Made by a program: the position numbers and the translations under genes
The notes under the pieces: model-generated
Database searches by the model: none
What the model saw: the letters and a program-made list of their open reading frames with translations, nothing else
Told to the model about the DNA's origin: nothing
Part shown: positions 41,315 to 59,973 of the stretch, piece after piece
Position numbering within the stretch: the stretch's first letter is position 1
How the letters are laid out: each line of letters begins with the position of its first letter
DNA from: a virus
Taxonomy: Duplodnaviria > Caudoviricetes
DNA: 59,973 nucleotides
IMG/VR virus record: IMGVR_UViG_3300035145_001735
Coordinates: 1 to 59,973 of that record
Strand: one strand, 5' to 3'

Positions 41315-41347
41315 AATACTGTAATAGAAATTCCAGGAGTATATTAT

Positions 41348-44581: not shown

Positions 44582-45006
44582 AAATACTAATATTTGGATT
44601 ACCAGGTAGTGGCAAAACTACACTTGCAAAACCACTAGCAGAATTATTAGGTGCTGTACATTTAAATGCCAATGACATTAGAGAACACTACAAAGATTGG
44701 GACTTTACACCTACAGGACGTATGCGACAAGCAGACCGTATGCGCTTGTTAGCAGATGGAGTTGTTCGTGCAGGTAAGATAGCAGTTGCTGATTTTGTGG
44801 CACCTACAGATCAAGCACGTATGGAGTTTAACCCCGACTTTACTATCTGGATGGATACCATTAAAGAAGGCAGATTTGAAGATACAAACAAAATGTTTGT
44901 GCCGCCATATAATGCATATGTTGATTATCATGTAAGCGAATGGTTCGATGATACACATACGGTATTACTCAAAGTTGTTCAAACTTGGATGGAAAGAAAT
45001 AAATGA
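44578..45006 (+). CDS. adenylyl-sulfate kinase-like P-loop kinase
   Basis: GLPGSGKTT, HLNANDIR, DFT..GRMRQ, ADFVAP, FVPP; start ATG 44578. Confidence 0.7.
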   Translation: MKILIFGLPGSGKTTLAKPLAELLGAVHLNANDIREHYKDWDFTPTGRMRQADRMRLLADGVVRAGKIAVADFVAPTDQARMEFNPDFTIWMDTIKEGRFEDTNKMFVPPYNAYVDYHVSEWFDDTHTVLLKVVQTWMERNK

Positions 45007-45419
45007 AATACTTTGACACTCAAAAACCGACTGTACAATTACTAGGACGTTGGCAACCATGGCATGATGGGCATACTGAATTAATTAAAAAAGCACTTGA
45101 AATAACCGGACAAGTATGTATTATGGTACGAGATGTAGGCGGCATTATAGGAGAAGATGCCGGCGACGGACGAACTACAGTACAAGATGATAATCCATTT
45201 ACATTTAATGAAGTTAGAAAAAACATTATCAATGCACTATATGATGAAAACATTGCACACAATAAACATTATATTATTATGAAAGTTCCTAACATTGTAG
45301 ATATTAGTTACGGACGTGGAGTAGGGTATACATTTACAGAACACGACTTAGGTGAAAAAATACATCAGATTAGTGCAACCGAGATAAGAGCACAAATGAG
45401 GGAAGAGGGCAAACTTTGA
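45003..45419 (+). CDS. small HxGH nucleotidyltransferase
   Basis: LGRWQPWHDGH, DNPFTF, YGRGVGY, ISATEIR. Confidence 0.8.
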   Translation: MKYFDTQKPTVQLLGRWQPWHDGHTELIKKALEITGQVCIMVRDVGGIIGEDAGDGRTTVQDDNPFTFNEVRKNIINALYDENIAHNKHYIIMKVPNIVDISYGRGVGYTFTEHDLGEKIHQISATEIRAQMREEGKL

Positions 45420-46282: not shown

Positions 46283-46293
46283 ATATTTTTATG
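46278..46293 (+). promoter_or_regulatory. T4-consensus late promoter TATAAATA 5 nt before ATG
   Basis: TATAAATA-TTTTT-ATG, no SD. Confidence 0.65.
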
Positions 46294-46845
46294 AAATATT
46301 TTACTCAGTTAAATTATCCAGAGTATGATTTAAAAACAGAGTTATATAATCTACTAGATAATAATAAAATTACATGGCATCATGGACAAATATGTATTAC
46401 TGGAGTCGAAGATGATCCAGATAATCAATCCATTGGTTGTGGTAGTTTATACTATGACTGGGATAATTCGTACTATGATGATCAAAATAATTTTGTTTTA
46501 CCTAAACGTAAAAAAATATACAAAGAAACAGATTTTAAAATATTAAACTCAGCGTTCCGTGGAACACTCTTCGAAAATGTACACAACATGCTAACTGAAA
46601 AACATACAGTTGGACGTATTAGGTTAATGAAATCAAAATTAAAAACTTGCTTGTCGTGGCATACAGATGATTCAACTAGAATACATTACCCTATAGTAAC
46701 ACAACCCGGTTGTATGATGGTAATCGAAGATGAAGTTATGCACATGCCAACTAACACATGGTGGCACACAGATACTACAAAGGAACACACTGCTTTTAAC
46801 GGAAGCAAAGAAGATAGAATTCATCTTGTTGTTTGTTTAACATGA
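46291..46845 (+). CDS. Asp/Asn beta-hydroxylase-like 2OG-Fe(II) oxygenase
   Basis: GRIRLM, WHTD, RIHYPI, HTAFN...DRIHLV. Confidence 0.8.
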   Translation: MKYFTQLNYPEYDLKTELYNLLDNNKITWHHGQICITGVEDDPDNQSIGCGSLYYDWDNSYYDDQNNFVLPKRKKIYKETDFKILNSAFRGTLFENVHNMLTEKHTVGRIRLMKSKLKTCLSWHTDDSTRIHYPIVTQPGCMMVIEDEVMHMPTNTWWHTDTTKEHTAFNGSKEDRIHLVVCLT

Positions 46846-47399
46846 ATAAAATTGCACTTACAGGACATACCAGCGGGTTAGGACTTGCTATACACAATCA
46901 TTTTTCAATAGAATGTGTTTTTTCTAGATCCAATAACTATGATTTGCTTGATGCAAAAAATATTAAAAGTATGGTTAATGCTGCTCAAGACTGTGATATT
47001 TTTATTAACAATGCTTTTCCTGCAATTGCAGCAGATAAAGTAGAAGGCATGAGTACACAGTTAGATATATTATATCAAATGTATCAGCGTTGGGAAAAAC
47101 ACAACAACAAATTAATTATTAACTTAGGATCAAACACAAGCGACGGAATTAAAAAACATGTATGGCCATATGCTGCAGCAAAAGCCGCTACTGATAAAGC
47201 ATGTGAACAACTATCGTATTTAAAAGATGGACCTAAGGTTTGTAATCTTAGATTTGGATATATTGACTTTCCGCATATTAACAAGATAGCGCCAAACGAA
47301 AAGAAGATATCCGTTGCAACTGCACTTAATTCTATACAATATGTTATTAACACCTTCAATGCCGGAAATACAGTCAGAGAACTTACAGTAATACCATGA
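46842..47399 (+). CDS. short-chain dehydrogenase/reductase (compact)
   Basis: TGHTSGLG, FINNA, YAAAK. Confidence 0.8.
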   Translation: MNKIALTGHTSGLGLAIHNHFSIECVFSRSNNYDLLDAKNIKSMVNAAQDCDIFINNAFPAIAADKVEGMSTQLDILYQMYQRWEKHNNKLIINLGSNTSDGIKKHVWPYAAAKAATDKACEQLSYLKDGPKVCNLRFGYIDFPHINKIAPNEKKISVATALNSIQYVINTFNAGNTVRELTVIP

Positions 47400-48055
47400 T
47401 CGAATTTGACTTGCCACCTGAGACATTAGAGCAACTTATCGAGTTATCAGTTACTGGTAAAGCAAGCGAAATGTACGAACTAAGCATTATAGAAGAACAA
47501 GAAAAAATAAAAAATATTATAAGTTCTTTTATTGATACAAAACATTACCATTATGGAAACTTGTTTTCACACATTAACCCATTTACAATACATGCAGATA
47601 TATCTGACAAAAAACAAACAATAATGTTAATGCCTATATCTGCAGCACCATCTCAACATTTTATAGTATTTGATCAAACAATTAATAGTCCGAGTCCTGT
47701 AAGTTGGATTTGGAATATATTTGATGATAAAACTGATAAAGAATTAGAAGAAATGTATTATCTAAGTGCATTAAAAAGTAGACCATGTGAATACAAAAAC
47801 ATATCAGGGTTAACAAATAAACCAATCGACGATGGTTTAATGCAACACCTACCTTACAGTAAAGAGTTTTACTACAGTCTAAGCGGGAAAGCATGGCCAT
47901 ATACACCAGGCAAAGCATTGATATTTTCTGCTGTTCACCCACATGCCACAGGTATAATGCAGTCTCCTAAGATTGGCTGTACTGTACAGTTTAATGTTTC
48001 GTATGAGCAAGTAATACTTGGGCTGAATTCATCAATACAACACAACCGATTTTAA
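47396..48055 (+). CDS. 2OG-Fe(II)/cupin-like oxygenase
   Basis: IHAD...VFDQ...PGKALIF...HAT...KIG. Confidence 0.65.
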   Translation: MIEFDLPPETLEQLIELSVTGKASEMYELSIIEEQEKIKNIISSFIDTKHYHYGNLFSHINPFTIHADISDKKQTIMLMPISAAPSQHFIVFDQTINSPSPVSWIWNIFDDKTDKELEEMYYLSALKSRPCEYKNISGLTNKPIDDGLMQHLPYSKEFYYSLSGKAWPYTPGKALIFSAVHPHATGIMQSPKIGCTVQFNVSYEQVILGLNSSIQHNRF

Positions 48056-48680
48056 ATGCACTCTGCACTGCAGTTCCGTGTATTTGACTGCTTTTAAATA
48101 GCAATGCAGCACCAGGTCTCCAGTGCCATGCAACACCTGTTAGTCCATGATAAAAATCTTCATTACCGTAAGGTAATAAATTTTGTATATCTGCAGGTAA
48201 CGGCTGATCAGTAATTGCACTTACACCCGGTGTGTCTGCAGGACGTACATCAACTAATACTTCACTTGGTAAGTGATCGTTATCAGCATCACTAGTGCTC
48301 TGATGTTCAGGACCTGCTGGTTCATGTTTTTCGTGTTCTATACTACTAAGTCTCCAACTCATACCATGTGATGTAAACTGTTGATCAAATACTAGTAGAC
48401 GCTGTTCTTGTTCAGTAGTCTTGTATAAAGGTACACATAAATTGTAAATAGCATTCTTTTTGTATCTGTCTACATGTAACGGAATTGGCTGTGTATGTGC
48501 ATAGATATATGCTGTTTCCATTATATTAGTATCTAAGTAAGAACCAAACGCACGTTCACGTAATTCAGCAGGTACATTCATATAAAAAGGATCTACCCGT
48601 GTTTCTAGGTCAACATGTTCACGCACATAACTCATTAGTATATCAATTGTGTGCTGTTGTATTGCTACTTCTTGTGTCAT
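47991..48680 (-). CDS. 2OG-Fe(II)/cupin-like oxygenase, paralog of 47396..48055
   Basis: LHVD...VFDQ...PGAALLF...HGT...KIG. Confidence 0.65.
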   Translation of the reverse strand: MTQEVAIQQHTIDILMSYVREHVDLETRVDPFYMNVPAELRERAFGSYLDTNIMETAYIYAHTQPIPLHVDRYKKNAIYNLCVPLYKTTEQEQRLLVFDQQFTSHGMSWRLSSIEHEKHEPAGPEHQSTSDADNDHLPSEVLVDVRPADTPGVSAITDQPLPADIQNLLPYGNEDFYHGLTGVAWHWRPGAALLFKSSQIHGTAVQSAFKIGCVVLMNSAQVLLAHTKH

Positions 48681-49291
48681 TGTGGTAAATCATCAACACC
48701 ATCTAAACTGAACATCAGTGCAATTCTAGGACGATTGCTCATGTTCACAACTGCATGTGGATATCCGATATTTAGGAAGTAAGCATTACCATCTTCTAAA
48801 TTGTAGGCTTCTAGATCGCCGTCACGTTTAAACAAATTAACAACATTGTTACCTCCGTGGATAGGACAAATACAACGCACAGCATAACTCACATCGTAGT
48901 CAACATGAAAAGGAATTATTTTACCTGGTGCAAGTTTTGTAATGCGTACACGACTTGCAGGTGCTTTTAACTGTGTTACAACTTGTTCAAAGTAACTGCC
49001 TGTGTACTGTTCCGTAGGAACATTGTACAAGTGTTCTTCACGTCTACGCAATCTTTCTTTGATACTGGCTTCGTATGGCAATATTTCACTTGGTGTTGTT
49101 AGGTTAATTTGCTCAAAGTTATCGTAAACATTTGCTACCAGTTCCATGTGATTGTCACACAGCATAGGATTGGCAGTTCTAACATCTGTGTAACTTTCTG
49201 CCAGTGCATCTGCTGCACTGCGTAAACGTTCTAGATCAATATCCAAATTGAAATTATGTATAGTGGGCAGTTGATGCTTTTTTAAACTCAT
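48677..49291 (-). CDS. Asp/Asn beta-hydroxylase-like 2OG-Fe(II) oxygenase
   Basis: RVRITKLAPG.IPFHVD, HAVVN....R. Confidence 0.8.
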   Translation of the reverse strand: MSLKKHQLPTIHNFNLDIDLERLRSAADALAESYTDVRTANPMLCDNHMELVANVYDNFEQINLTTPSEILPYEASIKERLRRREEHLYNVPTEQYTGSYFEQVVTQLKAPASRVRITKLAPGKIIPFHVDYDVSYAVRCICPIHGGNNVVNLFKRDGDLEAYNLEDGNAYFLNIGYPHAVVNMSNRPRIALMFSLDGVDDLPQ

Positions 49292-49895
49292 AGTATTCTC
49301 CTACTTGTTCTAAGTTTATTCCTTGTTGTTGCATTTGTTGTTCATAATCAACTATTGTGCTTAGTTGATGATACCGTGAAAACGGCAACGCCAGATCTTC
49401 ATAGTATACAACTGTACCTTCAACAGCGTCTAACTGATCTTTTATAGCAAAAAATTGATCTAAACTGGCCTGCAAATCAACAGTGTTATCAATATTTATA
49501 TCGTGGGCATATTCCACATCAACTATGCCAGCAGTACGCCAATGTACCAATTCCTGCCACATAAAGCTCAATGCCCAACGCCAAAGGTTTTTGCGTTTCA
49601 GTACCAACACTTGATCATTACAGTAAAAATCTACAAACCATGTGTTGTAATAATCAAATTGATCAGTTTGCAAATAGTTTATATGATGCTTGAACGTGTA
49701 TTCACGTCCCAGTTCACGCTCACTGTTAAGCCATGCTATTTTGGTTGCTGTATCCCATTCGCTTTTTATATCAGGATTCAAAAACTCTGCCTTGTCATGT
49801 GGCTTGTACACATTGGGCAACAGAAGATTTTCACGGTCAATGTGCTCGTAGTAATAACTGCTACCCGAACGAGGTGCACTCAACAGTACCTTCAT
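49254..49895 (-). CDS. sulfotransferase (Stf0-like)
   Basis: APRSGSS PAPS 5'-loop, LKRKN...ALS 3'-phosphate motif, YYEDL. Confidence 0.75.
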   Translation of the reverse strand: MKVLLSAPRSGSSYYYEHIDRENLLLPNVYKPHDKAEFLNPDIKSEWDTATKIAWLNSERELGREYTFKHHINYLQTDQFDYYNTWFVDFYCNDQVLVLKRKNLWRWALSFMWQELVHWRTAGIVDVEYAHDINIDNTVDLQASLDQFFAIKDQLDAVEGTVVYYEDLALPFSRYHQLSTIVDYEQQMQQQGINLEQVGEYYEFKKASTAHYT

Positions 49896-50494
49896 ATATA
49901 GTCCTCAGCAGGCACAATCAAATCACTTTTGGGTTGCCAAACATAGTCAGGATCTTGTAATCTAATACTGTAAACATACTGTACAATTGGTCCTGTTTTG
50001 AACAAAAAGTCTGGTTCTAACTGTAAACTGTTATACCATTCACCCGTTGTCCATTCATTGAAACTGCTAACAGTCATACGTTTTTTACGTTGATACAGTG
50101 CATTGATTGCACGTTTTGTAATGTCATGTGTAACGTACAGTATTTGATAACCTTGTTCTCTAGCCCACGGTATCTGCAGTTCTCCCATACGCAAACCACA
50201 ATGTGTAAAACGATAGTCTTTTAATATATGATATCTACAAATTCTAACAGCAATGTCAGGATCATTTGTATAATGAGATTGCTCTGCTGCACTAATGCTA
50301 ATTAGTTTATTATCTATAAAGCACATCCAAGTTTCAATACGAGGATCGTCTGGATCGTAATGTCTTGACTTGTATTTTACAAAACTATCATTACCTTCAG
50401 CAATGCATTGTTTAGCAAACTCGTGTACTAAAGGTCTATAGTAGTCAGGATCTTCACTGTATCTATAAATTGAGATGTTCTGTTGTGATTGCAT
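49892..50494 (-). CDS. GNAT-like acyltransferase
   Basis: WMCFIDNKLISISA, RYHILKDYR, WAREQGYQILYVT, NALY. Confidence 0.55.
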   Translation of the reverse strand: MQSQQNISIYRYSEDPDYYRPLVHEFAKQCIAEGNDSFVKYKSRHYDPDDPRIETWMCFIDNKLISISAAEQSHYTNDPDIAVRICRYHILKDYRFTHCGLRMGELQIPWAREQGYQILYVTHDITKRAINALYQRKKRMTVSSFNEWTTGEWYNSLQLEPDFLFKTGPIVQYVYSIRLQDPDYVWQPKSDLIVPAEDYI

Positions 50495-51257
50495 ATTCTT
50501 TATATTTGTTCCAACTTTTTTCTAGCAACTCGTGCCATTTAGGTAAATCGTAAACACCATGTAATACCAATTGCACTCGCTCACGCATTTCAAATCCACG
50601 GTCAACACCATGTTCATATACTGCACCATCATATGCAAATGCATTTGTTTCTGGAGGTAACATAGGATAAACTTGTGTAGCATCACTATCTGGAGTCATG
50701 TAAAAATGTTCGTTACGCCAATCAGTTACTCTGCTCCATCTAAAGTGCAAGTGACTAGGTGCCTGTGTTTTAAGTATATCGTTTATTGCTAATTCTTCGT
50801 CATAGTGACAAGGTATTGCTTGTGGTGATTGTACAAAAAATGCTTGGTGTATAGTTTCAAATGGTAAGTTTTCAACATACTCAATAATGTCAGGAAATGC
50901 TTCTGTTGCAAAGCCATACCAGTCTGGATTAGCACCGGCTTGCCCGCACATGTTTGGTTTTAAAAATGTTAACTGTCCTACATTACGAGTTTGATAATAG
51001 TATTCTTGTAAAGTTGGATCTTCTGCTAAATCTGCTACTAAATCCATATCAACATCTAAGTAAGGTAAATCAACTGGTGTCCATACCATATCACGATATC
51101 CTGTATATTCATCATTTAATGAAAGATATTCGTAACTTGGACGATCTACTTTAACTAATGTACCAGGATCATCATTGATATAGCGCCTAATAGGTTCGCC
51201 ATTTTCATAATATTCTATTTCGTTTTTTACTATACGAAAGTTATCTGTATTGTACAT
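50463..51257 (-). CDS. 2OG-Fe(II)/cupin-like oxygenase
   Basis: VENLPF, IPCHYD, EHGVD...R. Confidence 0.6.
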   Translation of the reverse strand: MYNTDNFRIVKNEIEYYENGEPIRRYINDDPGTLVKVDRPSYEYLSLNDEYTGYRDMVWTPVDLPYLDVDMDLVADLAEDPTLQEYYYQTRNVGQLTFLKPNMCGQAGANPDWYGFATEAFPDIIEYVENLPFETIHQAFFVQSPQAIPCHYDEELAINDILKTQAPSHLHFRWSRVTDWRNEHFYMTPDSDATQVYPMLPPETNAFAYDGAVYEHGVDRGFEMRERVQLVLHGVYDLPKWHELLEKSWNKYKEYAITTEHLNL

Positions 51258-51732
51258 CTAATATTGTCCTATGTCCTACAGGTATGTTTAAATTAAATTC
51301 ATACCTAAAATGTTCGTAACGATTAAAATAATCCAAATCAGTATACGGCAAGTCTTCTGTATTTTTATTATTTACTTCATGTATAATGGCACGTTTTGGT
51401 TTATAAAAATTACAAATACGTTCAAACATGTTCAATGGATCGTTGTCATAAATTAACACACTTCCAAACACAATAACATCACATGCAACTAATTTTAAAT
51501 TATTCCAGTCTCGAATTTCAAATGTTTTGTCAGGATATGTTTGTTTAGCAAAATTTATAGGTTCCTCACTAGTATCGAAACCATAATAATCATATGTATG
51601 TTTTTTTAAATATTTGTTTACTTCACCTGTACGACATCCTACATCGACTATATGTTTACAATTATTTTTAACAACAATTGTGGCTATTGTTTGATACAGT
51701 ACACTAGCATCAGTACTGTCTAAATAGTTCAT
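51241..51732 (-). CDS. class I SAM-dependent methyltransferase
   Basis: IVDVGCRTG, YYGFDTS, DVIVFGSVL; start moved to ATG 51732 (GAGGA SD). Confidence 0.85.
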   Translation of the reverse strand: MNYLDSTDASVLYQTIATIVVKNNCKHIVDVGCRTGEVNKYLKKHTYDYYGFDTSEEPINFAKQTYPDKTFEIRDWNNLKLVACDVIVFGSVLIYDNDPLNMFERICNFYKPKRAIIHEVNNKNTEDLPYTDLDYFNRYEHFRYEFNLNIPVGHRTILDVQYR

Positions 51733-51736
51733 TTCC

Positions 51737-52558
51737 TCAATAGTGTAATTCTTCTGCAGGTGTGATGTGTTGATAATCACAAGCAATTCTCCAAAGCAAT
51801 CTATTCCTATCTAGAACAGGTGTACGCCTATGTAGTGTTGTAAACTGATCCATTAATAACAAGTCACCACGTTTAAAAATATGATGATACTGATGCTTAC
51901 TTTTAAAAATAATAGGCATAAGTTTTTTGATCATTTCTTCATGGTCTATTTTCTTTTTACCTTCCCACGCACCAATGATAAAATGATATGGAAAGTAAAA
52001 ATAACTTTTACCTGTATGCGGATGTTCGCCTACTAACGGACGTATACTTCCTTTATTTTTACTCATAAACTCTAGTTCAGGATCATCGTCGTCTAAGTGA
52101 TACATTGTATTGTTTTGGAACTTAATACGTATTTTTATACTACGCCAGTATTCTTGTTCGTCCTTGCTTAGTTCATAAAAAGGATCACTAGTATTACATA
52201 TGCTTAGTGTAGTATTAATGTCTTCTTCTATGCAGTATAGTCCAATTACAATTTTATCAATTAAGTGTCTACTGTTACCATTACTGTGCCATCCTAGTTC
52301 TGTATCTCCGAACATACCAATCTTTTTACCATCATCGTCACGTTTGCCTGTAACTAAAAATATCTCAGGATATTCTTTTGGATTCATAAACAAGTCAGGT
52401 GCTTCACATTCGCCAAACTTTTTCATTGTGTTAATATAATCACGTTGTGTTAAGTTTTGCTCGTGAAATATAGTCATACCAACAGTTTGCAATTCATTTG
52501 CAATAAGTTGTAAATCATTTATTTTAGTAATATCGTCTATTCTTCTATTAGGTTGCAT
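51737..52558 (-). CDS. TauD/TfdA-family dioxygenase (HxN variant)
   Basis: GMTIFHEQNLT, WHSNG, HPHTGK, GDLLLMDQ..TLHRR, RLLWR. Confidence 0.85.
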   Translation of the reverse strand: MQPNRRIDDITKINDLQLIANELQTVGMTIFHEQNLTQRDYINTMKKFGECEAPDLFMNPKEYPEIFLVTGKRDDDGKKIGMFGDTELGWHSNGNSRHLIDKIVIGLYCIEEDINTTLSICNTSDPFYELSKDEQEYWRSIKIRIKFQNNTMYHLDDDDPELEFMSKNKGSIRPLVGEHPHTGKSYFYFPYHFIIGAWEGKKKIDHEEMIKKLMPIIFKSKHQYHHIFKRGDLLLMDQFTTLHRRTPVLDRNRLLWRIACDYQHITPAEELHY

Positions 52559-53327
52559 GATATTGCTCCTTAATCAAATCGGCAATACATAATCTATTTG
52601 TATAGTTACGTCTAAACTTATTGTAACACGAATCGTCAGAAGTTGCAAGCCAAATTGCATCGCTAGGTGTAAGATTTAATTCTTCGCATATACTTGTTTG
52701 ATATGGTTTAAGTGTATCATAAACTAAATTACTGTCTATGCACTGCATCAAATGTTCTCCTAATCCCATACTATAATAATTATAGTACTTGGCACTAGTA
52801 TGCAATGGTTCCAATCGCTTGTCAGGTGTACGACTCCAGTAATATCCAATTCTATAATTACGTAAACCAAAGCATTTGCTAAAACTAAAAAACACACGTT
52901 CTACATTGTTTGGTATATCAATGTATTTCTTTTTTGTACTTAACAAGTATGCTAAATCTAATACAACAGGCATGTCTGTAGGAATTGTGCAATAGTTGCC
53001 ATCATAACTTGTTGGATTACTAAGATATAAAACTTCTCCAGTTGATTTACCAGTAACCCATTGATAGTCATCAGCGGCCATTTTAATTGTACGCTTTTCT
53101 TGCCACATCCAATAATTGAGACCTTCAGTAATACCATTCAATGGATAAAAGTAATCAAATGTACTTAAATCACAATAAGGCTTTAAATAATCAACTATTT
53201 GACTTTGATGCTTGTGCACTGCAGTATAGTTATCGAATGTATAAGACTCTACTGCACTTATTACTTCACGTATAGGAAACGTGCGGATAGCAAGACTTTG
53301 ATTTAATATTTTTTGAATTTTTTCCAT
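52548..53327 (-). CDS. PLP-dependent aminotransferase-like protein (fold type I, compact)
   Basis: NGITEGL, LSNPT..DG, LDLAY, SFSKCFGL..YRIG. Confidence 0.75.
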   Translation of the reverse strand: MEKIQKILNQSLAIRTFPIREVISAVESYTFDNYTAVHKHQSQIVDYLKPYCDLSTFDYFYPLNGITEGLNYWMWQEKRTIKMAADDYQWVTGKSTGEVLYLSNPTSYDGNYCTIPTDMPVVLDLAYLLSTKKKYIDIPNNVERVFFSFSKCFGLRNYRIGYYWSRTPDKRLEPLHTSAKYYNYYSMGLGEHLMQCIDSNLVYDTLKPYQTSICEELNLTPSDAIWLATSDDSCYNKFRRNYTNRLCIADLIKEQYHAT

Positions 53328-53329
53328 AA

Positions 53330-53983
53330 CTATACAGTTTTAAATACACCAATTTTTATTAATTGCTGTGCAATCCACCCACCAGTATCATATGTGTGTA
53401 ATCGAATTTTTCTAAAGTTGTTGTGATGTTCACGATGATAGCCTTCACCTGCAATCAACAGGTTAAGCCATGGTACATTTGATCCACCTTCTTCACGATG
53501 TCCTACTGTGTTTAACAATCCAAAACCAAGTTTTGCATGAATGAATGGCATAAGTGCAAATGCTACAAAGAATTTAAAACTGATCAGCAAACTGACGATC
53601 CATACAGCCGTTACAATTTTAAACCAATGATTATGACAGAATACCAAACGTGGATTCTCATATAGATCTTTTGCATACTTGACAGGTATACGAGGAATAT
53701 CCCAGGTGGTTAGTAGTACACGCCAATAACCTACGTGCTTTGCAGCGTGTGGATCTTCAGGTCCGTCGCTGTGTGCATGATGCATTCTGTGACTAGCAAT
53801 CCAACCGATAGGTGAACGTATAACTGCAATCATAAGCATAGCAAGTCCAACTGTTTCAAACCACACCGGTACACGAAACTGTCGATGACAATAATATCTA
53901 TGTAACAAAATACTTGCACCCCAATGGGATATCAGTGTTCCCCACAAGTATCCAATTGCTATTACCCAAATCCAATCCATCAA
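53330..53983 (-). CDS. membrane fatty-acid desaturase (delta-9-like)
   Basis: His boxes HRYYCH, HRMHH, HREHH; TM segments. Confidence 0.9.
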   Translation of the reverse strand: MMDWIWVIAIGYLWGTLISHWGASILLHRYYCHRQFRVPVWFETVGLAMLMIAVIRSPIGWIASHRMHHAHSDGPEDPHAAKHVGYWRVLLTTWDIPRIPVKYAKDLYENPRLVFCHNHWFKIVTAVWIVSLLISFKFFVAFALMPFIHAKLGFGLLNTVGHREEGGSNVPWLNLLIAGEGYHREHHNNFRKIRLHTYDTGGWIAQQLIKIGVFKTV

Positions 53984-54696
53984 ATTGCCTTTACAATATC
54001 AATACTTTCTTGCCAAGTCTGTGTTGCACTTTCAAAATTAATATTTGCAATCACACGATGCTGTGTACCTTGGTTGTATGCTTCGTGCCACTGTTTAACA
54101 TTCCACAGCACTGGTCTATCAATTAGTGCATATCTACACACTGCTTCTTCATCAGTGAGCAGATAACGTTCGTTGTCTTTGTTGTAGGTTTTCCAATAGT
54201 ATTCGCTCCAGTATACACCTATGCTAGGATCGTCTGGTATGTAACCATCTACATCCTCATACGCAGGCCAACTGGTAATAGTATTTTCATCACAGCCTGC
54301 AATTGGAAAAATTAAACTTGCAACACTGCTAGTATAATGATGTCTATGACAGAAAAACAAGTGCTCTACGCTTTTAAAACTTGGCTGTGTAGGATCACTT
54401 TGAAAGAACTTGATTGCACGTGTAAATCCTAAACGTCCTAGCATATCGCTTAATTCACGATAAGGTTCTATGTCTGCTAGATATACAACCTGCATAAGAG
54501 GTTTGTCTGGATCATAAAGTGCATAATGCTCTTTTATGTGTTCTTTAAAAAATTCTGATTCTGGCTCTTGTGTATAAATGTTTGGTAAATGTGAATATAT
54601 TTCCATACACTGATCATGCATCCATTGTAAACCAGAAGTTAAATCTGGCTCGCACACAAAATTTGTTGCTAGTGTTGGATCTGTTAAAATCGGCAT
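53980..54696 (-). CDS. cupin/2OG-oxygenase-like protein
   Basis: CHRH, SLIFPI, PVLWNVKQWHEAYN....RVI. Confidence 0.55.
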   Translation of the reverse strand: MPILTDPTLATNFVCEPDLTSGLQWMHDQCMEIYSHLPNIYTQEPESEFFKEHIKEHYALYDPDKPLMQVVYLADIEPYRELSDMLGRLGFTRAIKFFQSDPTQPSFKSVEHLFFCHRHHYTSSVASLIFPIAGCDENTITSWPAYEDVDGYIPDDPSIGVYWSEYYWKTYNKDNERYLLTDEEAVCRYALIDRPVLWNVKQWHEAYNQGTQHRVIANINFESATQTWQESIDIVKAI

Positions 54697-54708
54697 ATTG
54701 CTATTTAT
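54694..54708 (-). promoter_or_regulatory. late promoter ATAAATA 5 nt before ATG
   Basis: Minus strand reads ATAAATA-GCAAT-ATG. Confidence 0.55.
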
Positions 54709-55828
54709 TTACTTTTCTCTTGGGTATTTTACTATCTGCACTACTAACACATGCAGGTGTAGTACAAACACGTGGCCCATCGAACAGTTTAAATCCTGTT
54801 TCAATATTGCCTAATGGAACGTCATGACAACTGTAACTACGCTTAATACTACCATCAGGCTCACGGATAATGATACCGCTATACCCACTTTGACACATCC
54901 ATCCTTCAAACTTGTTAAATCCAAAAGCATTAAATCTCTCCGCTTGATCCATGTACCATTTTTTGCCTTTACTATCTGTAAACTCAACTTGCATATGCCA
55001 TGGTACGCTTTTATCGTTTTCGCCTATTGCATAAGGCGGCAATTCGAAACTAGGCCTTGGACGAGCGGCCCACTTTCGTTTTGACTCAGTATACGCCATT
55101 TGCGGCATTCCGTTCCACAATCGCTGTAACATTTCTTCTGTATAACCGTCCACGACTCTTGACGCCGTTGGGTCGGATTGGGGTTTAAGGGTAACGTTGA
55201 TTCCTTGCTCGTGGAAGAATAAAGCATTTTCCCAATCTTTTTCAAACCACTCGGGAACCATGACCATGTTGATTGTAATTTGTACATCGTGTTCTTGGCA
55301 CAAGATTAATTTATCTGCAAAGTCTTGCATCTTGTCACGTGTATTTAAGTGTTCTGTGTGTAAACTAGCGGTTATACTTGCTCTATGAAATGGTTTTGCA
55401 CGTTCTACATAGTCTTCAAACCATTTCATAGGACGACTGCAGTTTGATGTCATATGGATAGAAGTATAATTAGTATTAGGCACATCGTCAGCCAAGTAGC
55501 CAAGTATGTCCAAGTACCCTGGATGAAAGGTAGGCTCGCCCCCAGACAAACTAAAATGAAAACTATTAAATCCGTTATCACGTGCTTGCCTCTTTATTTC
55601 ATCAATAGTCTTAAGACATAAGTCGGTGGGTCGGTGGTCTTTACGATCTGATCGGGCGTAAGGCCAACAATAGCTGCAACGATAATTGCAAAACCTACCA
55701 AGTAGCCAACTAACAGTAAACAAATCTCTGTAAAGAAGAGTACGTTGTCCAACTTGGACAATGTCGTCATACGGAATTTTTGTGAAATCATAATCACTCC
55801 ATTTTAAATCTTCATTCGACTCTGCCAT
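54701..55828 (-). CDS. radical SAM protein with C-terminal Cys cluster
   Basis: CNYRCSYC, SGGEPT, MTSN; C-terminal C...SC...C..C. Confidence 0.9.
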   Translation of the reverse strand: MAESNEDLKWSDYDFTKIPYDDIVQVGQRTLLYRDLFTVSWLLGRFCNYRCSYCWPYARSDRKDHRPTDLCLKTIDEIKRQARDNGFNSFHFSLSGGEPTFHPGYLDILGYLADDVPNTNYTSIHMTSNCSRPMKWFEDYVERAKPFHRASITASLHTEHLNTRDKMQDFADKLILCQEHDVQITINMVMVPEWFEKDWENALFFHEQGINVTLKPQSDPTASRVVDGYTEEMLQRLWNGMPQMAYTESKRKWAARPRPSFELPPYAIGENDKSVPWHMQVEFTDSKGKKWYMDQAERFNAFGFNKFEGWMCQSGYSGIIIREPDGSIKRSYSCHDVPLGNIETGFKLFDGPRVCTTPACVSSADSKIPKRKVNK

Positions 55829-55970
55829 CTAACCTCATTTCCAAATACTTAATAACTTGTTCAAACATTGTTTTCATATCAGGGTCGTTTGTTTCTTCGT
55901 ACATTATTCGAACTTCTTTTAGTTCTTCTTCAAATAATTTTTTAACACTTATAATTTTATGATCAACCAA
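55812..55970 (-). CDS. small helical protein, 52 aa (not in ORF track)
   Basis: TTG start with GGAG SD; MVDHKIISVKKLFEEELKEVRIMYEETNDPDMKTMFEQVIKYLEMRLDGRVE. Confidence 0.6.
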   Translation of the reverse strand: MVDHKIISVKKLFEEELKEVRIMYEETNDPDMKTMFEQVIKYLEMRLDGRVE

Positions 55971-55971
55971 T

Positions 55972-56649
55972 TTAAAATTCTCCAAACGCCCATTTACGTT
56001 CTAAACACCACCAACACTCGCCGCACGGAGTATACTCAAACTCCGGATTGTAATAATTGTGCACAGGCATGTCTTCACAACTTCTAGTTAATTGTAATAA
56101 ATCGTTTACTGCATATTGTTTATACATCGATGCAATAAATCTTTTATCTACATTTATAAATGGTGTATAGTAATGGTTAATCCACAGTGGTTTATTTCTT
56201 CCTATACGATATGCAGGTTCCGGAGGATATAAATTAAATACATTTCCATTTATAGTTTTTACCGTTTCTCCCTCGTCAGGACATGCTGTTAGCCCTGATA
56301 TAACACAATCGATATTTTGTTGCTCAAACAAGTTTTTTTCTACTGTATCAAAATATTCAACATTCTGAACATCTTTATAATACGAATAATGCATATTAAT
56401 TTTTGTAGTTTTTGTTTTATCAATTACATAATTAATAACATCTGCTGCACGTCTACCATTCCATCTATGCTTTTCATCGTTCGAACAAGTTAGTACATTT
56501 ATAACAACATCTTTGTTTTCAAAATATTTTACTAACATATATAATAAAATACTACTATCGGCACCACCACTACAACGAACTCCAATTTTTTTATATTGAT
56601 CTGGTATAGAAAAATCTATAGTTTGATTGTATTCGTCTGTCAGTGTCAT
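55972..56649 (-). CDS. QueC-like PP-loop ATPase
   Basis: SGGADS PP-loop; TPF..DK; TRSC...CGECWWC.ER Zn motif. Confidence 0.75.
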   Translation of the reverse strand: MTLTDEYNQTIDFSIPDQYKKIGVRCSGGADSSILLYMLVKYFENKDVVINVLTCSNDEKHRWNGRRAADVINYVIDKTKTTKINMHYSYYKDVQNVEYFDTVEKNLFEQQNIDCVISGLTACPDEGETVKTINGNVFNLYPPEPAYRIGRNKPLWINHYYTPFINVDKRFIASMYKQYAVNDLLQLTRSCEDMPVHNYYNPEFEYTPCGECWWCLERKWAFGEF

Positions 56650-57611
56650 TATAGTTCTTCTTTAATAAAAACATCTCTTTTCATTTGTTTACATACTTGC
56701 ATACAACGTGGTACTGGATTATCGCTTGTCCAACTATCTTTAATGCCTTGCCATATATTACTATTAATAGCCTGATCAATGCTAGCATTTTTTAAATTAA
56801 TAGTATCATAATAATTGTTACTTTCGATTAATGTTTCAAAGTCATCTTTAACTTCTCCACTAGCAGTGTATTCCATCATTTTACTATTCAAATGACAACA
56901 TGGAATAACATTGCCGTTATGATTAATAAAAATTCTTTTTTGATTTCCGTACTTACAACTAATATACGGTATCTCAGGCGCATTGTCAATCTCTTCTGTT
57001 TTTGCAGCCTTAACTGTGTCGCCTTTTGATTCTTTGCGATGACTAATAATAGTCTTAAACCCTTTAAAGCCTTCATCAGTTGCACGTTGTTTTGCTTCCT
57101 CAAGTTGATGCTCATTATGTTCAAATACAATAAACTGCCAATTACTGCGACCTCCTGCAGCATTAAATGCACGAAAGTTACGTTCTACTTTAACAAAGTT
57201 AGAACCTTCTCTATACACTTCGCTCAGTTCGTCGCTGCCGTCTATTCCCCAAGTAACTGCATGACTTGTACCTTTAAGGATACTAGCAAGTTTTTCCCAC
57301 CATTGCTCGGTGCGGGTACTTCCGTTTGTAGCAATATTAATATGTGCTCCCCAATCTGAAAAGTACTCTACTATAGCATGAAAGTCAGGATGTGTTGTAG
57401 GTTCATCTACACTGCCGCAAAAATTAACAATTTTAATTGCAGGCATTTCTTCTTTACGAAAGCGTTCACGTATTGTATCTAATGTAATGTATTCTTTATT
57501 TAAAATTTTGTCTGCTTGTTTGCTAAGTTCTCTGAAGCAACCTTTACAACGAATATTACAAAAACTTGTAAGTTCAATATCTAGCCATTCAAGTGTGTCC
57601 ATACTCCACAT
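56649..57611 (-). CDS. radical SAM/SPASM-twitch protein
   Basis: CNIRCKGC, ATNG, GIDG, VIPCC, C...C; start moved to ATG 57611. Confidence 0.9.
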   Translation of the reverse strand: MWSMDTLEWLDIELTSFCNIRCKGCFRELSKQADKILNKEYITLDTIRERFRKEEMPAIKIVNFCGSVDEPTTHPDFHAIVEYFSDWGAHINIATNGSTRTEQWWEKLASILKGTSHAVTWGIDGSDELSEVYREGSNFVKVERNFRAFNAAGGRSNWQFIVFEHNEHQLEEAKQRATDEGFKGFKTIISHRKESKGDTVKAAKTEEIDNAPEIPYISCKYGNQKRIFINHNGNVIPCCHLNSKMMEYTASGEVKDDFETLIESNNYYDTINLKNASIDQAINSNIWQGIKDSWTSDNPVPRCMQVCKQMKRDVFIKEEL

Positions 57612-57612
57612 A

Positions 57613-58230
57613 TTAAAATCCCTTAGATACCGAAGAAATACTTTCTTTAACTTTAGAAAAAAGTCCTTTATTTTTTTTACTTCTATGTTCAGTATTTTGT
57701 ATCGGGTCAATACTTAACTCATTGATAGCCAAATGTTTTGGTTGCGTAAATATCCAATTAATGTATTCTGCTGCTACATCAATATCCATACAAGTCCTGC
57801 CAGGATGCTTTTCTTGATTATTGCTCAGTGTGCCAAAACTTATATAAGATATTTTTGGACCACTATGCCATACATTAACCAGTCCTAAACTATTACAATA
57901 ATCACGTAGTGCTTTTTTTTCTGCATTATACAGCCAACTATTTCCTTTACTAGTTCTATCAGTAGTACTACCAATACATACAATATGTGCGTCATTCTGA
58001 GCCTTTTTAAGTGTTTTGTATACTGTATCTAGTAGTAAAGTTTGGTTAAACTTCCATAGTGCACTGTTAATAACAACTTTGTCATGATCTAAGCATCGAT
58101 CAGCAAATGCTTCTTGTCCGTCGGTTTTAGTTAAATCAAACCCAGTTGCTCTACTACAAAATTCTGCATCTGGATAATGTAACAATAAACTTTTTGCAAT
58201 TCCTTTTTCTGGATTTCCTGTAATAATCAT
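57613..58230 (-). CDS. short-chain dehydrogenase/reductase (compact)
   Basis: ITGNPEKGIA, VINSA, IGST, YNAEK. Confidence 0.75.
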   Translation of the reverse strand: MIITGNPEKGIAKSLLLHYPDAEFCSRATGFDLTKTDGQEAFADRCLDHDKVVINSALWKFNQTLLLDTVYKTLKKAQNDAHIVCIGSTTDRTSKGNSWLYNAEKKALRDYCNSLGLVNVWHSGPKISYISFGTLSNNQEKHPGRTCMDIDVAAEYINWIFTQPKHLAINELSIDPIQNTEHRSKKNKGLFSKVKESISSVSKGF

Positions 58231-58231
58231 T

Positions 58232-58867
58232 TTATAATCCTATTGTGTATGTTGTTAAATTTTTAGTTCTCGGTTCTACTGTTCTTACTAGTTCGTTATT
58301 GTCATCAAGTACATAGTTCCACGGAACTCCTGTTACAGGAACACCAATTCCTAATAATAATTCTATTCCACCGAGTTCAGATGGCGTTATGCCAACTGTT
58401 GAAGATATTAATTCTTTAATTTCACTATTTAAAAAACATTGGTTATAGCCTGTTTTATATCCCAATTGACAAGCACTTAACGCAACTGCTCCGCTACTAA
58501 TTCCAATGGCTGTTCTTACATTTAAGTCCCATGGATCATAATGTCCTTCTGCATTTGTCATATCTGTAAACCCAGGACCTTGATGGGTATTAAACCACAT
58601 AAAAACAACATGTGCATCTGATTGTGCATTTCTGTCAATAGTATCTGGATTGTCTAGATCAACAGAAAAGTTGTATAGTTGTCGATTAATAGTTTGGTCG
58701 GTAGATACAACAAGTCTGAAATATTCTACATTCTGTTTTGTAGGCATATTAGTTGCTATTTCTATTAGACCATTTACATGTTCAGTTGGCACGTTTACTG
58801 ATTTGTCCCAATTGCGTTGACAATGATTTGCTGTTTTACTTGCTAATATTAAATTTTCTATAGTCAT
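58232..58867 (-). CDS. nitroreductase-family protein
   Basis: CQRNWD, PTKQN, GISSG.VALSA..LGYKTG, LLGIG. Confidence 0.8.
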   Translation of the reverse strand: MTIENLILASKTANHCQRNWDKSVNVPTEHVNGLIEIATNMPTKQNVEYFRLVVSTDQTINRQLYNFSVDLDNPDTIDRNAQSDAHVVFMWFNTHQGPGFTDMTNAEGHYDPWDLNVRTAIGISSGAVALSACQLGYKTGYNQCFLNSEIKELISSTVGITPSELGGIELLLGIGVPVTGVPWNYVLDDNNELVRTVEPRTKNLTTYTIGL

Positions 58868-59973
58868 TTTGTATTCTCAAATATACTCATATCTTCAATA
58901 TGCTGCGGAAGTATTTCCATTAGTGCACCACGTTCTATACTCTTAGGTGTACACATACCACATCCACAGTGTTTTCCTGGTCCCAATGGGCAAGTAATAA
59001 TAGGCATAGTTTTGTTTTCTAAATTTTCTCGTAGTTCAGTAATAATATCATCACATTTACTAATACTTCCAATAGGACCACGTGTTCCATCAAACCGTGC
59101 TTGACAAGTTTGATGATGCCAAATAGTATCTGTTTGTTGTTCAATATGTAAAAAGAACCAGTTAACACTGCACTGCCAATTACTAAACTTAGCAAATTCT
59201 AAAAATGTACTTTTACTCCAACAGCCATCTGTGCTGCAAGTTTCCATTGTACGGCTACCGCAGCATGGTCTGCCTAGTTGTCTAGCAAGTTTCTTTTCTT
59301 CTGTTTTTTCTACTTGCACAGCGCCTGCTTCGTGTCCTACTTCTGCTTCTGCTTCTTCAGTAGTTTTGTTTAGTGCTGCATTTTTATTTGCCCAATAATC
59401 TTTCATCCATTGTAATTGTTCATCTGTGTAACGATGTGCATAACTGTTTTTACTATCTTCGTGTTCACCAATCATACGTGGCACGTATCCGATGCCATCA
59501 CGTTCTAATCTAGCACACAATTCTGCACACTCGTCCCAGTACTCAGCGTGAAACATTACATTAATTTTAATAGGAAATTTACGTTCGTGCAATAGATATA
59601 TGTTATTAATAACTTGTTGTTTTAAACTATTATGTGCTTCAGCATGATAACTAATAGTCATGAAGCCATAGTGTTCTACAACACTATTTGCCATTTTAGG
59701 ACCAAACGCACCATTACTAGTTATAGTTAAATTCATATGAAATTTATCTTTGTGATTTTCTTTCCAAGTTGTTTTAAGCCATTCGCCAAACGGTAAGAAA
59801 TTAGGATTTGCTGTAGGCTCGCCGCCGGTAAAATTAATGTTTAATCTTTTATTCTTTTTATAAGGAAAAATTAATTCAGCATAATCAAATATAAATTGTC
59901 CTGTCTTTTTCAATGTTTCAATATCAGCATGTGGGCTAAAGTTATCATGTCTGTGTGGAGGACAATATGTACA
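58864..59973 (-). CDS. radical SAM protein (5'-truncated by window edge)
   Basis: Window edge reads CTYCPPHRH (end of CxxxCxxC); FTGGEPT, TSNG; Cys-rich C-terminus. Confidence 0.88.
   Translation of the reverse strand, partial: CTYCPPHRHDNFSPHADIETLKKTGQFIFDYAELIFPYKKNKRLNINFTGGEPTANPNFLPFGEWLKTTWKENHKDKFHMNLTITSNGAFGPKMANSVVEHYGFMTISYHAEAHNSLKQQVINNIYLLHERKFPIKINVMFHAEYWDECAELCARLERDGIGYVPRMIGEHEDSKNSYAHRYTDEQLQWMKDYWANKNAALNKTTEEAEAEVGHEAGAVQVEKTEEKKLARQLGRPCCGSRTMETCSTDGCWSKSTFLEFAKFSNWQCSVNWFFLHIEQQTDTIWHHQTCQARFDGTRGPIGSISKCDDIITELRENLENKTMPIITCPLGPGKHCGCGMCTPKSIERGALMEILPQHIEDMSIFENTK

Follow-up and report, generated by a model that had tools for sequence, protein, structure and literature searches.

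Arrays of genes for radical S-adenosylmethionine (SAM) enzymes have been described in several phage genomes. The Campylobacter group II phages CP220 and CPt10 carry 11 and 12 such genes, termed "highly unusual" in the available text of the original description (Timms et al. 2010, PMC2853527). Twelve radical SAM genes were also found in a T4-like marine genome of 183 kb (Nishimura et al. 2017, PMC5332604), and the variable host recognition cluster of pelagimyophages contains radical SAM cassettes along with glycosyltransferase and AspH genes (Zaragoza-Solas et al. 2020, PMC7029224). No product is assigned to these genes in the available parts of the three papers (PMC2853527, PMC5332604, PMC7029224). 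The present analysis concerns an island of tailoring-enzyme genes at positions 46291-59973 of the IMG/VR virus record IMGVR_UViG_3300035145_001735, the whole of which, 59,973 bases in length, is referred to here as the window; the island genes are numbered g01 to g19 from left to right (Table 1). The island is the ThyA-proximal 13.7 kb of a biosynthetic super-island of about 50 kb. It spans parts of two modules, each of which is shown to be colinear among relatives, and the core module is shown to be common to a subset of Bdellovibrionota. Phage radical SAM arrays were first reported in 2010, and to our knowledge none has had its product identified. A literature search, with the supplements of the cited papers outside its scope, found no functional study of such arrays or of the N-twitch enzymes (catalogued in NCBIfam as NF033640, N_Twi_rSAM) that make up most of the radical SAM proteins tested from the nearest relative.

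The record is catalogued as a linear fragment that makes up an estimated 17% of a genome of about 350 kb. Its source is a marine jumbo myovirus, with a G+C content of 33-43% along the window and a family-B DNA polymerase 44-48% identical to those of the Phosso, Atu_ph07 and Rak2-type jumbo myoviruses. CP220 and CPt10 are, in the text available, likewise large virulent myoviruses with many radical SAM genes, part of which form an interchangeable module (PMC2853527). However, their identity to g14 and g16 is 27-32% over a third to three quarters of these proteins, host and habitat differ, and the same text describes no oxygenase or transferase cassette (PMC2853527). The marine T4-like phages and pelagimyophages resemble the present case in having up to 12 radical SAM genes and cassettes that vary between close relatives; their glycosyltransferase and lipopolysaccharide-type sugar genes lie in one large variable island beside fibre genes, and AspH-type hydroxylases are common, as far as the available parts of both papers go (PMC5332604, PMC7029224). 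The window phage differs from both in its polymerase, which is nearest to those of Rak2/Atu_ph07-type jumbo phages, and in its genome of about 350 kb. The present island is flanked by ThyA and, in a relative, by a giant virion protein and a fibre-like protein, whereas the pelagimyophage cluster lies between VrlC and gp14, neither of which was searched for here. Neither a colinear g13-g04 cassette nor a link to Bdellovibrionota is described in the available text of either paper (PMC5332604, PMC7029224). None of 50,697 phage records matched the island by megablast, and protein searches with g14 and g16 against isolated phages returned only partial matches of 25-32% identity, to phages of Campylobacter, a single Pelagibacter phage and a single unclassified phage record. 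New here are the colinear oxygen-dependent cassette, the split between a shared core and a phage-specific cassette, and the orthology with a subset of Bdellovibrionota.

An earlier sequence-only reading had described the island as a cluster of about 14 kb made almost entirely of tailoring enzymes. A tightly packed island does exist, but its apparent extent is an artefact of the contig end, since g19 lacks its N-terminus and the window is the entire record. That reading also proposed inspecting the sequence beyond position 59973. This was possible through relatives, and it emerges that only the ThyA-proximal edge had been seen and that a radical SAM super-island continues past it. A scan of viral contigs with g16 yielded 26 related loci. 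In the nearest relative (locus L002, record G005), the genes of which are 64-99% identical to those of the window, the contig has 19 matches to PF04055, spread over 18 frames from 8.5 to 52.1 kb; four other related records have 10, 11, 13 and 21. By BLAST clustering, the two main radical SAM families account for 212 open reading frames (ORFs) in the 26 loci and the window end. Eleven of the 15 radical SAM proteins tested from G005 pass the NF033640 cut-off of 170 bits, at 220-410 bits; in these members the auxiliary Fe-S domain, of a SPASM/twitch-like kind, precedes the radical SAM core on the N-terminal side. A further radical SAM protein of G005 belongs to the B12-binding class. None of the window's own enzymes reaches the NF033640 cut-off (g14 42 bits, g16 58 bits, g19 with no match listed).

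Other genes accompany the array in G005. They include a NodU-like carbamoyltransferase (PF02543/PF16861, 128/181 bits; 151 bits against the NodU family model, which has a cut-off of 1000), a sugar-1-phosphate nucleotidyltransferase-like protein, a second PP-loop protein, and more 2-oxoglutarate (2OG) oxygenase and methyltransferase genes; another protein we take, from its motifs, to be SGNH-like. There is also a conserved trio of 238-, 377- and 74-residue proteins. The 238-residue family, with two paralogues in the G005 island and no copy inside the window, has a GT-A fold: its AlphaFold2 model has a mean predicted local distance difference test score (pLDDT) of 90.6, the top 20 Foldseek hits are all glycosyltransferases, with RmlT, SunS, WrtF, GtrB and TarS the best, VIA gives Z 10-11.7 over residues 1-150, and a DxD-type motif is present as a conserved D(G/A)D column. 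Pfam GT2 is matched at E 7.7e-4 only, in one member. Profiles of two partner families from G005 found nothing usable in the PDB. A protein of 73-83 residues without a family match, conserved over its full length, heads radical SAM arrays in several relatives (L008:4017-4268, L012:2995-3216, L028:2596-2820 and others), where it stands behind the GT-A-fold gene and a partner gene. The far end of the G005 island adjoins a virion structural protein of more than 2542 residues (phrog_10938, 576 bits) and a fibre-like protein.

Within the window, the island comprises 19 ORFs of 181-375 residues and one of 57 residues. Genes g01-g03 lie on the plus strand, with the ThyA stop directly preceding them (PF00303, 344 bits), and g04-g19 run leftward from the contig end on the minus strand. 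Consecutive genes from g19 to g04 either overlap or are separated by no more than 4 nucleotides, the likely inner starts of g16 and g09 being used. Module 1, which begins with g14-g19 and continues beyond the window, is a core of SPASM-type, N-terminal-twitch (NF033640) and B12-type radical SAM enzymes, accompanied by PP-loop ATPases, reductases resembling short-chain dehydrogenases/reductases (SDRs) and nitroreductases, the GT-A-fold protein and a partner protein. Module 2, comprising g13-g04 together with g03-g01, is a phage-specific cassette of oxygen-dependent and group-transfer enzymes. The division rests on the behaviour of g14, which is conserved and abuts ThyA without the cassette in nine of the 26 loci; the window thus holds the accessory cassette (g01-g13) and the edge of the core (g14-g19). 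In 23 of the 26 loci g14 stays at 78-99% identity while its neighbours drop to 30-60%.

A second scan, with the g13 alignment, gave 13 loci with the cassette in seven distinct arrangements. The order g13-g12-g11-g10-g09-g08-g07-g06-g05-g04, on one strand, is kept in all 13, even where identity falls to 42-47% (g04 and g06) or 66% (g13). Variation takes the form of whole insertions or losses. Only L109-L111 have a B12 radical SAM gene between g06 and g05, one that the window lacks; insertions of about 2 kb separate g12 from g11 in L114 and L121, a g01-like gene stands between g14 and g13 in L115-L121, and in L112/L113 the cassette adjoins ThyA directly, without g14. On one 81.9-kb contig of a metagenome-assembled genome (MAG), homologues of g13 and g07 stand six genes apart according to their NCBI locus tags, the spacing also seen in the window. 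It had been suggested beforehand that gene content shuffled at random among relatives, with no conserved sub-cluster, would speak against a cluster; since the order is conserved in 13 of 13 loci, that test does not refute it. The island is a coherent cluster of conserved enzymes, not a chance assortment.

The island genes are under purifying selection. The ratio of nonsynonymous to synonymous substitution rates (dN/dS), measured against orthologues in L002 and L003, is 0.012-0.363 in all 17 genes compared, and the genes are therefore real and functional. Their timing is less clear than the sequence-only reading supposed. It had placed late-promoter motifs at 46278 (+) and 54708 (-); TATAAATA is present exactly at the first position, while there is no exact match at the second. 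The motif occurs twice in the window against 7.5 occurrences expected by chance, so that it is not enriched but rarer than expected, and late expression then rests on a single 8-base match. An oligo-dT RNA library (X20) yielded small contigs on g14, where two of three pieces were without differences, and on g03. These are no proof of transcription, because DNA carry-over is possible and contigs give no level; stretches without cover in this library are uninformative.

The core module is also found in bacteria. A scan of prokaryotes with the g16-family alignment, one genome per species, returned 78 loci. Eighteen contain an ORF of 55% or higher identity to g14, 17 of them labelled Bdellovibrionota, and in 19 there is an ORF that matches one N-twitch radical SAM protein of G005 at the same threshold. 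Orthologues of g14 (E <=1e-40, 59-67% identity) were found in 16 of 301 sampled Bdellovibrionota genomes, in none of 401 Pseudomonadota genomes and in none of 300 further Bacteroidota genomes; the Bacteroidota genome at the centre of the latter sample has its own 83% g14 match, on a 33-kb contig resembling binned phage DNA. The bacterial islands contain 4-9 radical SAM genes, in the order g17-like, g16-like, g14, g16-like, N-twitch radical SAM, 238-residue-family and 377-residue-family protein, with PP-loop, B12 radical SAM, AspH-like and g11-like genes near the cores. Relatives of g17 (36-40%), g19 (46-51%) and, weakly, g11 (23-29%) lie in these islands. The setting is chromosomal: L055 has dnaG and rpoD as neighbours on a contig of 558 kb, and L070 is beside a seryl-tRNA synthetase gene. 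By contrast, none of g04-g10, g12 and g13 was found in the 78 bacterial loci, which makes the cassette phage-specific in this sample. In two bacterial proteins the GT-A-fold domain is fused to a radical SAM enzyme, of the N-twitch kind in L052 (722 residues) and the SPASM kind in L077 (635 residues).

In a quick tree of g14, the 13 phage-type sequences form one clade among the bacterial ones (support of 99 in the Shimodaira-Hasegawa-like approximate likelihood-ratio test), next to two Bacteriovoracaceae sequences (support 86), with the root unsure. As the outgroup branches are very long and the sister placement reaches only 86, no donor is claimed. Two further bacterial records, L068 (labelled a Gammaproteobacteria MAG) and L075 (labelled a Crocinitomicaceae MAG), have g14 at 90% and 83% identity, and L068 also has the phage kinase pair described below and g17 at 61-65%; both look like phage contigs binned into bacterial MAGs. 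The Bdellovibrionota genomes behind L055, L062 and L074 (G006, G008 and G009; 3.4-4.1 Mb) have 35-47 Radical_SAM matches each, in several dense arrays such as one of about 14 within 20 kb of a G008 contig. This seems many for genomes of that size, an impression formed without a comparison.

Table 1. Genes of the island in the window, with the main evidence for each assignment
Feature	Position	Strand	Evidence
g01, AspH-type 2OG-Fe(II) oxygenase	46291..46845	+	PF05118 43.2 bits (cut-off 22.6)
g02, short SDR-like protein	46833..47399	+	PF00106 adh_short 18.6 bits against cut-off 26.6, sub-threshold
g03, paralogue of g04 with invariant HxD...H	47396..48055	+	29% identity to g04
g04, candidate 2-His-1-carboxylate oxygenase, last colinear cassette gene	47991..48680	-	HxD...H motif shared with g03
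g05, AspH-type 2OG-Fe(II) oxygenase	48677..49291	-	PF05118 27.5 bits (cut-off 22.6)
g06, Stf0-type sulfotransferase-like protein (lead)	49254..49895	-	Atlas structure look-alikes
g07, GNAT-like acyltransferase (lead)	49892..50494	-	PF00583 in 2 of the 120 homologues listed
g08, protein with invariant HxD...H	50463..51257	-	H151, D153, H216 invariant in family alignment
g09, class I SAM-dependent methyltransferase	51241..51786	-	PF13489 45 bits
g10, TauD/TfdA-family protein, HxN replacing HxD	51737..52558	-	PF02668 72.1 bits (cut-off 27)
g11, short pyridoxal phosphate (PLP) aminotransferase-like protein (lead)	52548..53327	-	Atlas cluster, Aminotran_1_2 in 17% of members
g12, membrane His-box enzyme, fatty-acid desaturase family	53330..53983	-	PF00487 39.2 bits (cut-off 29.7)
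g13, His-rich protein known only from the present phage group	53980..54696	-	First gene of colinear cassette
g14, radical SAM enzyme, Cys-bearing C-terminal domain	54701..55828	-	PF04055 57 bits (cut-off 29.5)
57-residue acidic ORF just upstream of g14	55812-55985	-	Conserved in window, L002, L003, L012
g15, PP-loop ATPase, QueC-like C-terminal end	55972..56649	-	PF06508 28.8 bits, residues 161-224 only
g16, radical SAM/SPASM enzyme	56649..57608	-	PF04055 45.6 bits; PF13186 25.2 bits (cut-off 21.5)
g17, short SDR-like protein	57613..58230	-	NCBIfam SDR_TniO_fam E 4.2e-5, far below cut-off
g18, nitroreductase-like protein, sub-threshold	58232..58867	-	PF00881 18.0 bits against 23.5
g19, radical SAM enzyme, N-terminus cut by contig end	58864..59973	-	PF04055 18.4 bits

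The enzymes had for the most part been named correctly from motifs. The three radical SAM proteins, the methyltransferase, TauD, the desaturase-type enzyme and the QueC-like ATPase exceed curated cut-offs, g19 doing so through its full-length orthologue (L002:7633-8841, 97% identical, PF04055 32.9 bits), whereas the SDRs and the nitroreductase are sub-threshold and the sulfotransferase, GNAT and PLP assignments are leads, if ones on which the motif reading and the present searches agree. Among "about seven" 2OG-Fe/cupin oxygenases, g01, g05 and g10 are borne out, g03, g04 and g08 have the motif only, and g13 has no support. As had been said, no nonribosomal peptide synthetase or polyketide synthase family appeared in profile searches of the window proteins.

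In the core edge, g14 is the island's most conserved gene, at 78-99% identity in 23 of the 26 loci, with a dN/dS of 0.012-0.021 and 4863 homologues in public data. Its CxxxCxxC motif is at residues 47-54, with C47, C51 and C54 invariant. The start of g16 was set at the Met common to its relatives, which align from residue ~34 of the longest ORF; its CxxxCxxC then falls at residues 17-24, and C17, C21 and C24, as well as C64, C237, C238, C302 and C306, are invariant in the family alignment. Neither g14 nor g19 has a SPASM match. The QueC match of g15 is confined to profile positions 155-208 (TIGR00364 17.2 bits against a cut-off of 150); a six-frame QueC search gave 18.7 bits, below the cut-off, and the match to the QueC models is thus not full-length. 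Its N-terminus weakly matches NAD_synthase and ATP_bind_3, a PDB sequence search found chance matches only, and its paralogues adjoin radical SAM genes in relatives, with 2-3 per island. Relatives of g18 in phage loci are 30-90% identical. The 57-residue ORF, which overlaps the ends of g15 and g14, has a dN/dS of 0.27-0.29 and no Cys. It is deleted in L004 and missing in most lineages, and it travels with g14 in L012; it is probably helical.

In the cassette, H124, D126 and H166 of g01 are invariant in an alignment of 12 sequences, forming an HxD...H iron triad, and g05 is 65-97% identical across related loci. H69, D71 and H201 are invariant in the alignment of g03 with g04; g03 has no Pfam, PHROG or NCBIfam match, and the dN/dS of g04 is 0.08-0.12. 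TauD/TfdA enzymes are expected to have an HxD...H iron-binding triad. The distal His is conserved in the g10 group, but WHxN is found in all seven members (window, L002-L005, L026 and L027) where HxD is expected, and thus the carboxylate ligand may be missing, as it is from halogenase-type 2OG enzymes. The His-rich g13 has 42 homologues, all at least 56% identical and none with a Pfam domain, and its profile found no relative in the PDB. Compared by hhalign with an AspH-family profile, g03/g04, g08 and g13 gave probabilities below 1%, which is not significant. For g06, which has neither a Pfam nor a PDB sequence match, the Atlas look-alikes are of the Stf0/Sulfotransfer_3 type (PF09037/PF13469; TM 0.52-0.68), with "Nodulation H" among them (TM 0.52). 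One g07 homologue carries GNAT in its JGI name, and a PDB sequence search with g07 gave one chance match; that with g11 gave non-significant matches to aminotransferases (E 0.59 and 1.7 over residues 113-163). Four more methyltransferase families exceed their cut-offs in g09, g12 matches the NCBIfam DesA family at 30 bits, below cut-off, and g02 has weak NCBIfam SDR matches and is 72-82% conserved in L109-L113.

The reading that we favour, with a probability of roughly 45%, is radical and oxygen-dependent tailoring of a sugar or glycoconjugate. Under this proposal the substrate would be a nucleotide-activated or carrier-bound sugar, on which the radical SAM enzymes would perform oxygen-independent C-H chemistry (epimerisation, dehydration, decarboxylation or C-methylation), while the PP-loop enzymes would amidate carboxylates. 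Module 2 would then add amino, acetyl, methyl, sulfate and hydroxyl groups, and the product would be a heavily decorated glycoconjugate, either on the virion or in the envelope of the infected cell. A sugar is favoured because of the GT-A family and its fusions, the likeness of g16 to BlsE, the look-alikes of g06, the carbamoyltransferase and nucleotidyltransferase genes, and the lack of room for a peptide-recognition domain. Also counted in its favour are the scale of the array and its NF033640 members, the conserved gene order and purifying selection, the giant virion protein at the far end, the sugar-nucleotide genes elsewhere in the window and the top rank of BlsE, tied with peptide enzymes, among the structural neighbours of g14. 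Fusion to radical SAM enzymes of both kinds ties the GT-A-fold domain to the substrate on which they act. BlsE, BtrN and DesII are SPASM/twitch radical SAM enzymes that modify sugars and nucleosides. The best PDB sequence matches of g16 are GDGT-MAS (7tol, 3.6e-7) followed by BlsE (7vob, 0.007), so its nearest solved relatives by sequence are a tetraether lipid synthase and a sugar-nucleoside decarboxylase, not peptide maturases. As a structural lead, g06 resembles carbohydrate sulfotransferases of the Stf0/NodH type. The sequence-only reading had listed the decoration of glycans among its possibilities, and it is this one that the wider island favours; its caution that the product is not readable from sequence extends to the target (virion proteins, glycans or host lipids).

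Several observations weigh against a sugar. No glycosyltransferase, sugar-nucleotide or export gene was found inside 46291-59973, and the evidence for a sugar comes from the relative's continuation, outside the window. The GT-A match cannot separate glycosyltransferases from nucleotidyltransferases, IspD and MobA scoring Z 9.7-11. In the bacterial loci L055, L062, L070 and L080, no polysaccharide polymerase, flippase or classical glycosyltransferase was found within about 10 kb, and g12 belongs to a family of lipid-acting membrane enzymes. The fold of g14 does not decide the substrate, because sugar, peptide and nucleotide enzymes tie within 1.5 Z: the top neighbour of the g14 model (pLDDT 76) is BlsE (Z 14.9, root-mean-square deviation 4.2, 254 residues aligned), EpeE and SkfB are close to it, the three spanning Z 14.6-14.9, and CteB, PqqE, the viperins and MoaA fall within the same 1.5 Z. 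DesII and BtrN score Z 10.9-11.9, and identities are 11-14%. The likeness to BlsE does not point to a substrate, since the scores of peptide-modifying enzymes are just as high. Finally, radical SAM enzymes are oxygen-labile and module 2 requires oxygen, so that one joint pathway is not self-evident.

The same enzymes could instead mature a protein or peptide, the radical SAM proteins cross-linking, epimerising or methylating a phage peptide or virion protein in the manner of peptides that are ribosomally synthesised and post-translationally modified (RiPPs), and the oxygenases, methyltransferase and sulfotransferase decorating its side chains. AspH-type enzymes classically hydroxylate Asp or Asn in proteins, the island ends at a giant virion protein, many of the weak NCBIfam matches are to peptide maturases, and EpeE, SkfB, CteB, PqqE, SuiB and anSME are neighbours of g14 at Z 13-14.7. 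The conserved 57-residue ORF directly upstream of g14 and the conserved 73-residue protein at the head of relatives' arrays, the only candidate precursors left after removal of shadow ORFs, look unlike precursors: the former lacks Cys and is absent from L004 and most lineages, and the latter is conserved over its full length, unlike a leader-plus-core precursor. RiPP maturases of the radical SAM/SPASM type are expected to have a peptide-recognition domain (PqqD-like, or RiPP recognition element) in or beside them. No PqqD family member appeared in profile searches of the window and the relative, and with only 46 (g14) and 16 (g16) residues before CxxxCxxC there is no space for such a domain. 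As the closest sequence matches of g16 are lipid- and sugar-modifying enzymes and radical SAM proteins are fused to a GT-A-fold domain, peptide maturation seems unlikely. Remodelling of membrane lipid or lipid A, to which the sequence-only reading had pointed through LpxO, OlsC and OlsB, would call on AspH-type hydroxylases, a His-box desaturase or hydroxylase (g12), a GNAT-like N-acyltransferase, a head-group methylase and some radical SAM enzymes acting on lipids. LpxO, OlsC and OlsE are lipid hydroxylases, with OlsB the parallel for the GNAT. The Pfam assignments of g01, g05 and g12 (PF05118 and PF00487), the GDGT-MAS match of g16 and weak matches of the relatives' B12 radical SAM family to a "lipid biosynthesis B12-binding/radical SAM" model and to HpnJ all agree with a lipid. 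Yet every lipid-type match other than those to two broad Pfam families is far below its family cut-off, neither the island nor the relative's continuation showed an acyl carrier, a PlsC/OlsA-type acyltransferase or a gene for lipid A, and the sulfotransferase-like, carbamoyltransferase, nucleotidyltransferase and GT-A-fold genes suit sugars better. The resemblance is at the level of families, and a lipid target, while still a rival, is doubtful.

It is also conceivable that the island hypermodifies phage DNA bases or nucleotides, with g15 as a QueC-like step of the 7-deazaguanine pathway, radical SAM tailoring, and ThyA, dihydrofolate reductase (DHFR) and a kinase as neighbours. In CP220, 11 radical SAM genes are paired with fully 7-deazaguanine-modified DNA, according to the available text of two sources (PMC2853527; bioRxiv 10.1101/2023.04.13.536721). 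FolE (PF01227, 131.8 bits) and a QueE-like gene (phrog_2076, 180.5 bits) are present at 25.5-31.8 kb of the window, g14 directly abuts ThyA in nine of 26 loci, g15 matches the C-terminal end of QueC, and viperin-type nucleotide enzymes are among the structural neighbours of g14. Against these points, no QueD, full QueC or TGT/DpdA was found in the window fragment or four related records, and none of five related records has a TGT/DpdA match, although DpdA is divergent and the records are fragments, so that absence is not shown. The six-frame QueC matches are sub-threshold and found only inside radical SAM islands, with none in the 198-kb record G001; the PP-loop paralogues stand 2-3 per island beside radical SAM genes; and the same core occurs in Bdellovibrionota chromosomes, where no FolE or QueE was seen in four annotated loci. 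Base modification therefore appears very unlikely. We think it equally improbable that there is no single pathway at all, the region being a hypervariable site where unrelated auxiliary metabolic genes accumulate and stay together only because recombination is tolerated. Relatives do differ by gains and losses of cassettes (L109-L111, L114, L121, L112/L113), and comparable regions are called hypervariable in the available part of the pelagimyophage paper (PMC7029224). But a ten-gene order that all 13 loci keep at identities as low as 42-66%, the absence of intergenic gaps above 4 nucleotides from g19 to g04, uniform purifying selection and the recurrence of the core order in Bdellovibrionota chromosomes all argue otherwise.

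Two known systems offer parallels for decoration of the kind favoured here, that of a sugar or glycoconjugate, and for the lipid alternative respectively. The sulfotransferase NodH, the carbamoyltransferase NodU and the methyltransferase NodS decorate Nod factor, the same combination of activities on a sugar backbone as is suggested here. The analogy is functional only: the island has no NodA/B/C set, and all scores are far below family cut-offs. LpxO and OlsC belong to the same Pfam family as g01 and g05, and g12 is a His-box membrane enzyme; unlike those systems, no lipid A or ornithine-lipid synthesis gene accompanies g01, g05 and g12.

It is attractive to consider a broader scenario for the shared core, though a decidedly speculative one that we hold to be improbable. 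A single pathway of ten or more radical SAM enzymes, centred on g14 and an N-twitch enzyme (both with 60-67% identity across the bacterial and viral versions), would be old and shared only by a subset of the predatory Bdellovibrionota and a clade of abundant marine jumbo phages. It would make a radically tailored, sugar-derived molecule that both predators deploy at the envelope of Gram-negative prey, for entry, masking or the exclusion of competitors, and the phages would have added the 13-gene oxygen-dependent cassette. A bolder variant has these phages infecting Bdellovibrionota themselves.

Elsewhere in the window there are baseplate-lysozyme, endolysin and nucleotide-metabolism genes. Besides FolE (GTP cyclohydrolase I) and the QueE-like radical SAM protein, the stretch 25488-31762 encodes a PnrA/Bmp-like nucleoside-binding protein, a 2OG-Fe(II) oxygenase and a phosphoribosyltransferase, and the group resembles 7-deazapurine genes. 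Positions 21705-25249 hold a heptose-1-phosphate adenylyltransferase-like cytidylyltransferase and an NAD-dependent sugar epimerase/dehydratase, which places sugar-nucleotide genes about 20 kb from the island. Between DHFR and ThyA, at 44566-45419, two small overlapping genes encode a P-loop kinase and a nicotinamide mononucleotide (NMN)-adenylyltransferase-like nucleotidyltransferase; phrog_10255 matches each half, the pair is 61-65% conserved in L068 and L112, and it may correspond to a fused NadR-like form. The idea that this pair supplies 3'-phosphoadenosine-5'-phosphosulfate to g06 was dropped, NCBIfam giving a generic P-loop kinase and an NMN-adenylyltransferase-like protein. At 39556-42559 an AAA/MoxR-like ATPase and two small ORFs are followed by a DUF2201 metallopeptidase-VWA protein (PF13203, 137.5 bits), for which the PHROGs label "HNH endonuclease" has no support from the Pfam result.

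The island is not confined to its source sample. Near-identical island DNA, defined as at least 62% of sampled words, is present in 19 sequencing runs, 18 of which, from 13 studies, remain when the possible source is left aside. The run labels are seawater, marine, wetland, sediment and aquaculture metagenomes, and contigs from three of these runs are colinear over the entire island. Contig depth summed over g14 (54660-55725) reaches, in runs X2 and X4, about five times that of the neighbouring genes (108-259 against 18-54), and the same excess is seen over the kinase/ThyA stretch at 44.5-46.1 kb. This fits the co-occurrence of many phages that share these genes at 90% or higher nucleotide identity.

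These abundant marine phages spend about 50 kb, a seventh of an estimated 350-kb genome, on some 18 radical SAM enzymes and a dozen decorating enzymes. A search for the product can start from the colinear cassette, from the fusions of GT-A and radical SAM domains and from the orthologous core of Bdellovibrionota. The conserved gene set is small and lends itself to expression, and, Bdellovibrionota being a phylum with culturable members, a bacterial system may allow knock-outs. Should the product prove to represent a new class of radically edited sugars, it would bear both on phage-host recognition in the ocean and on the enzymology of radical SAM proteins.

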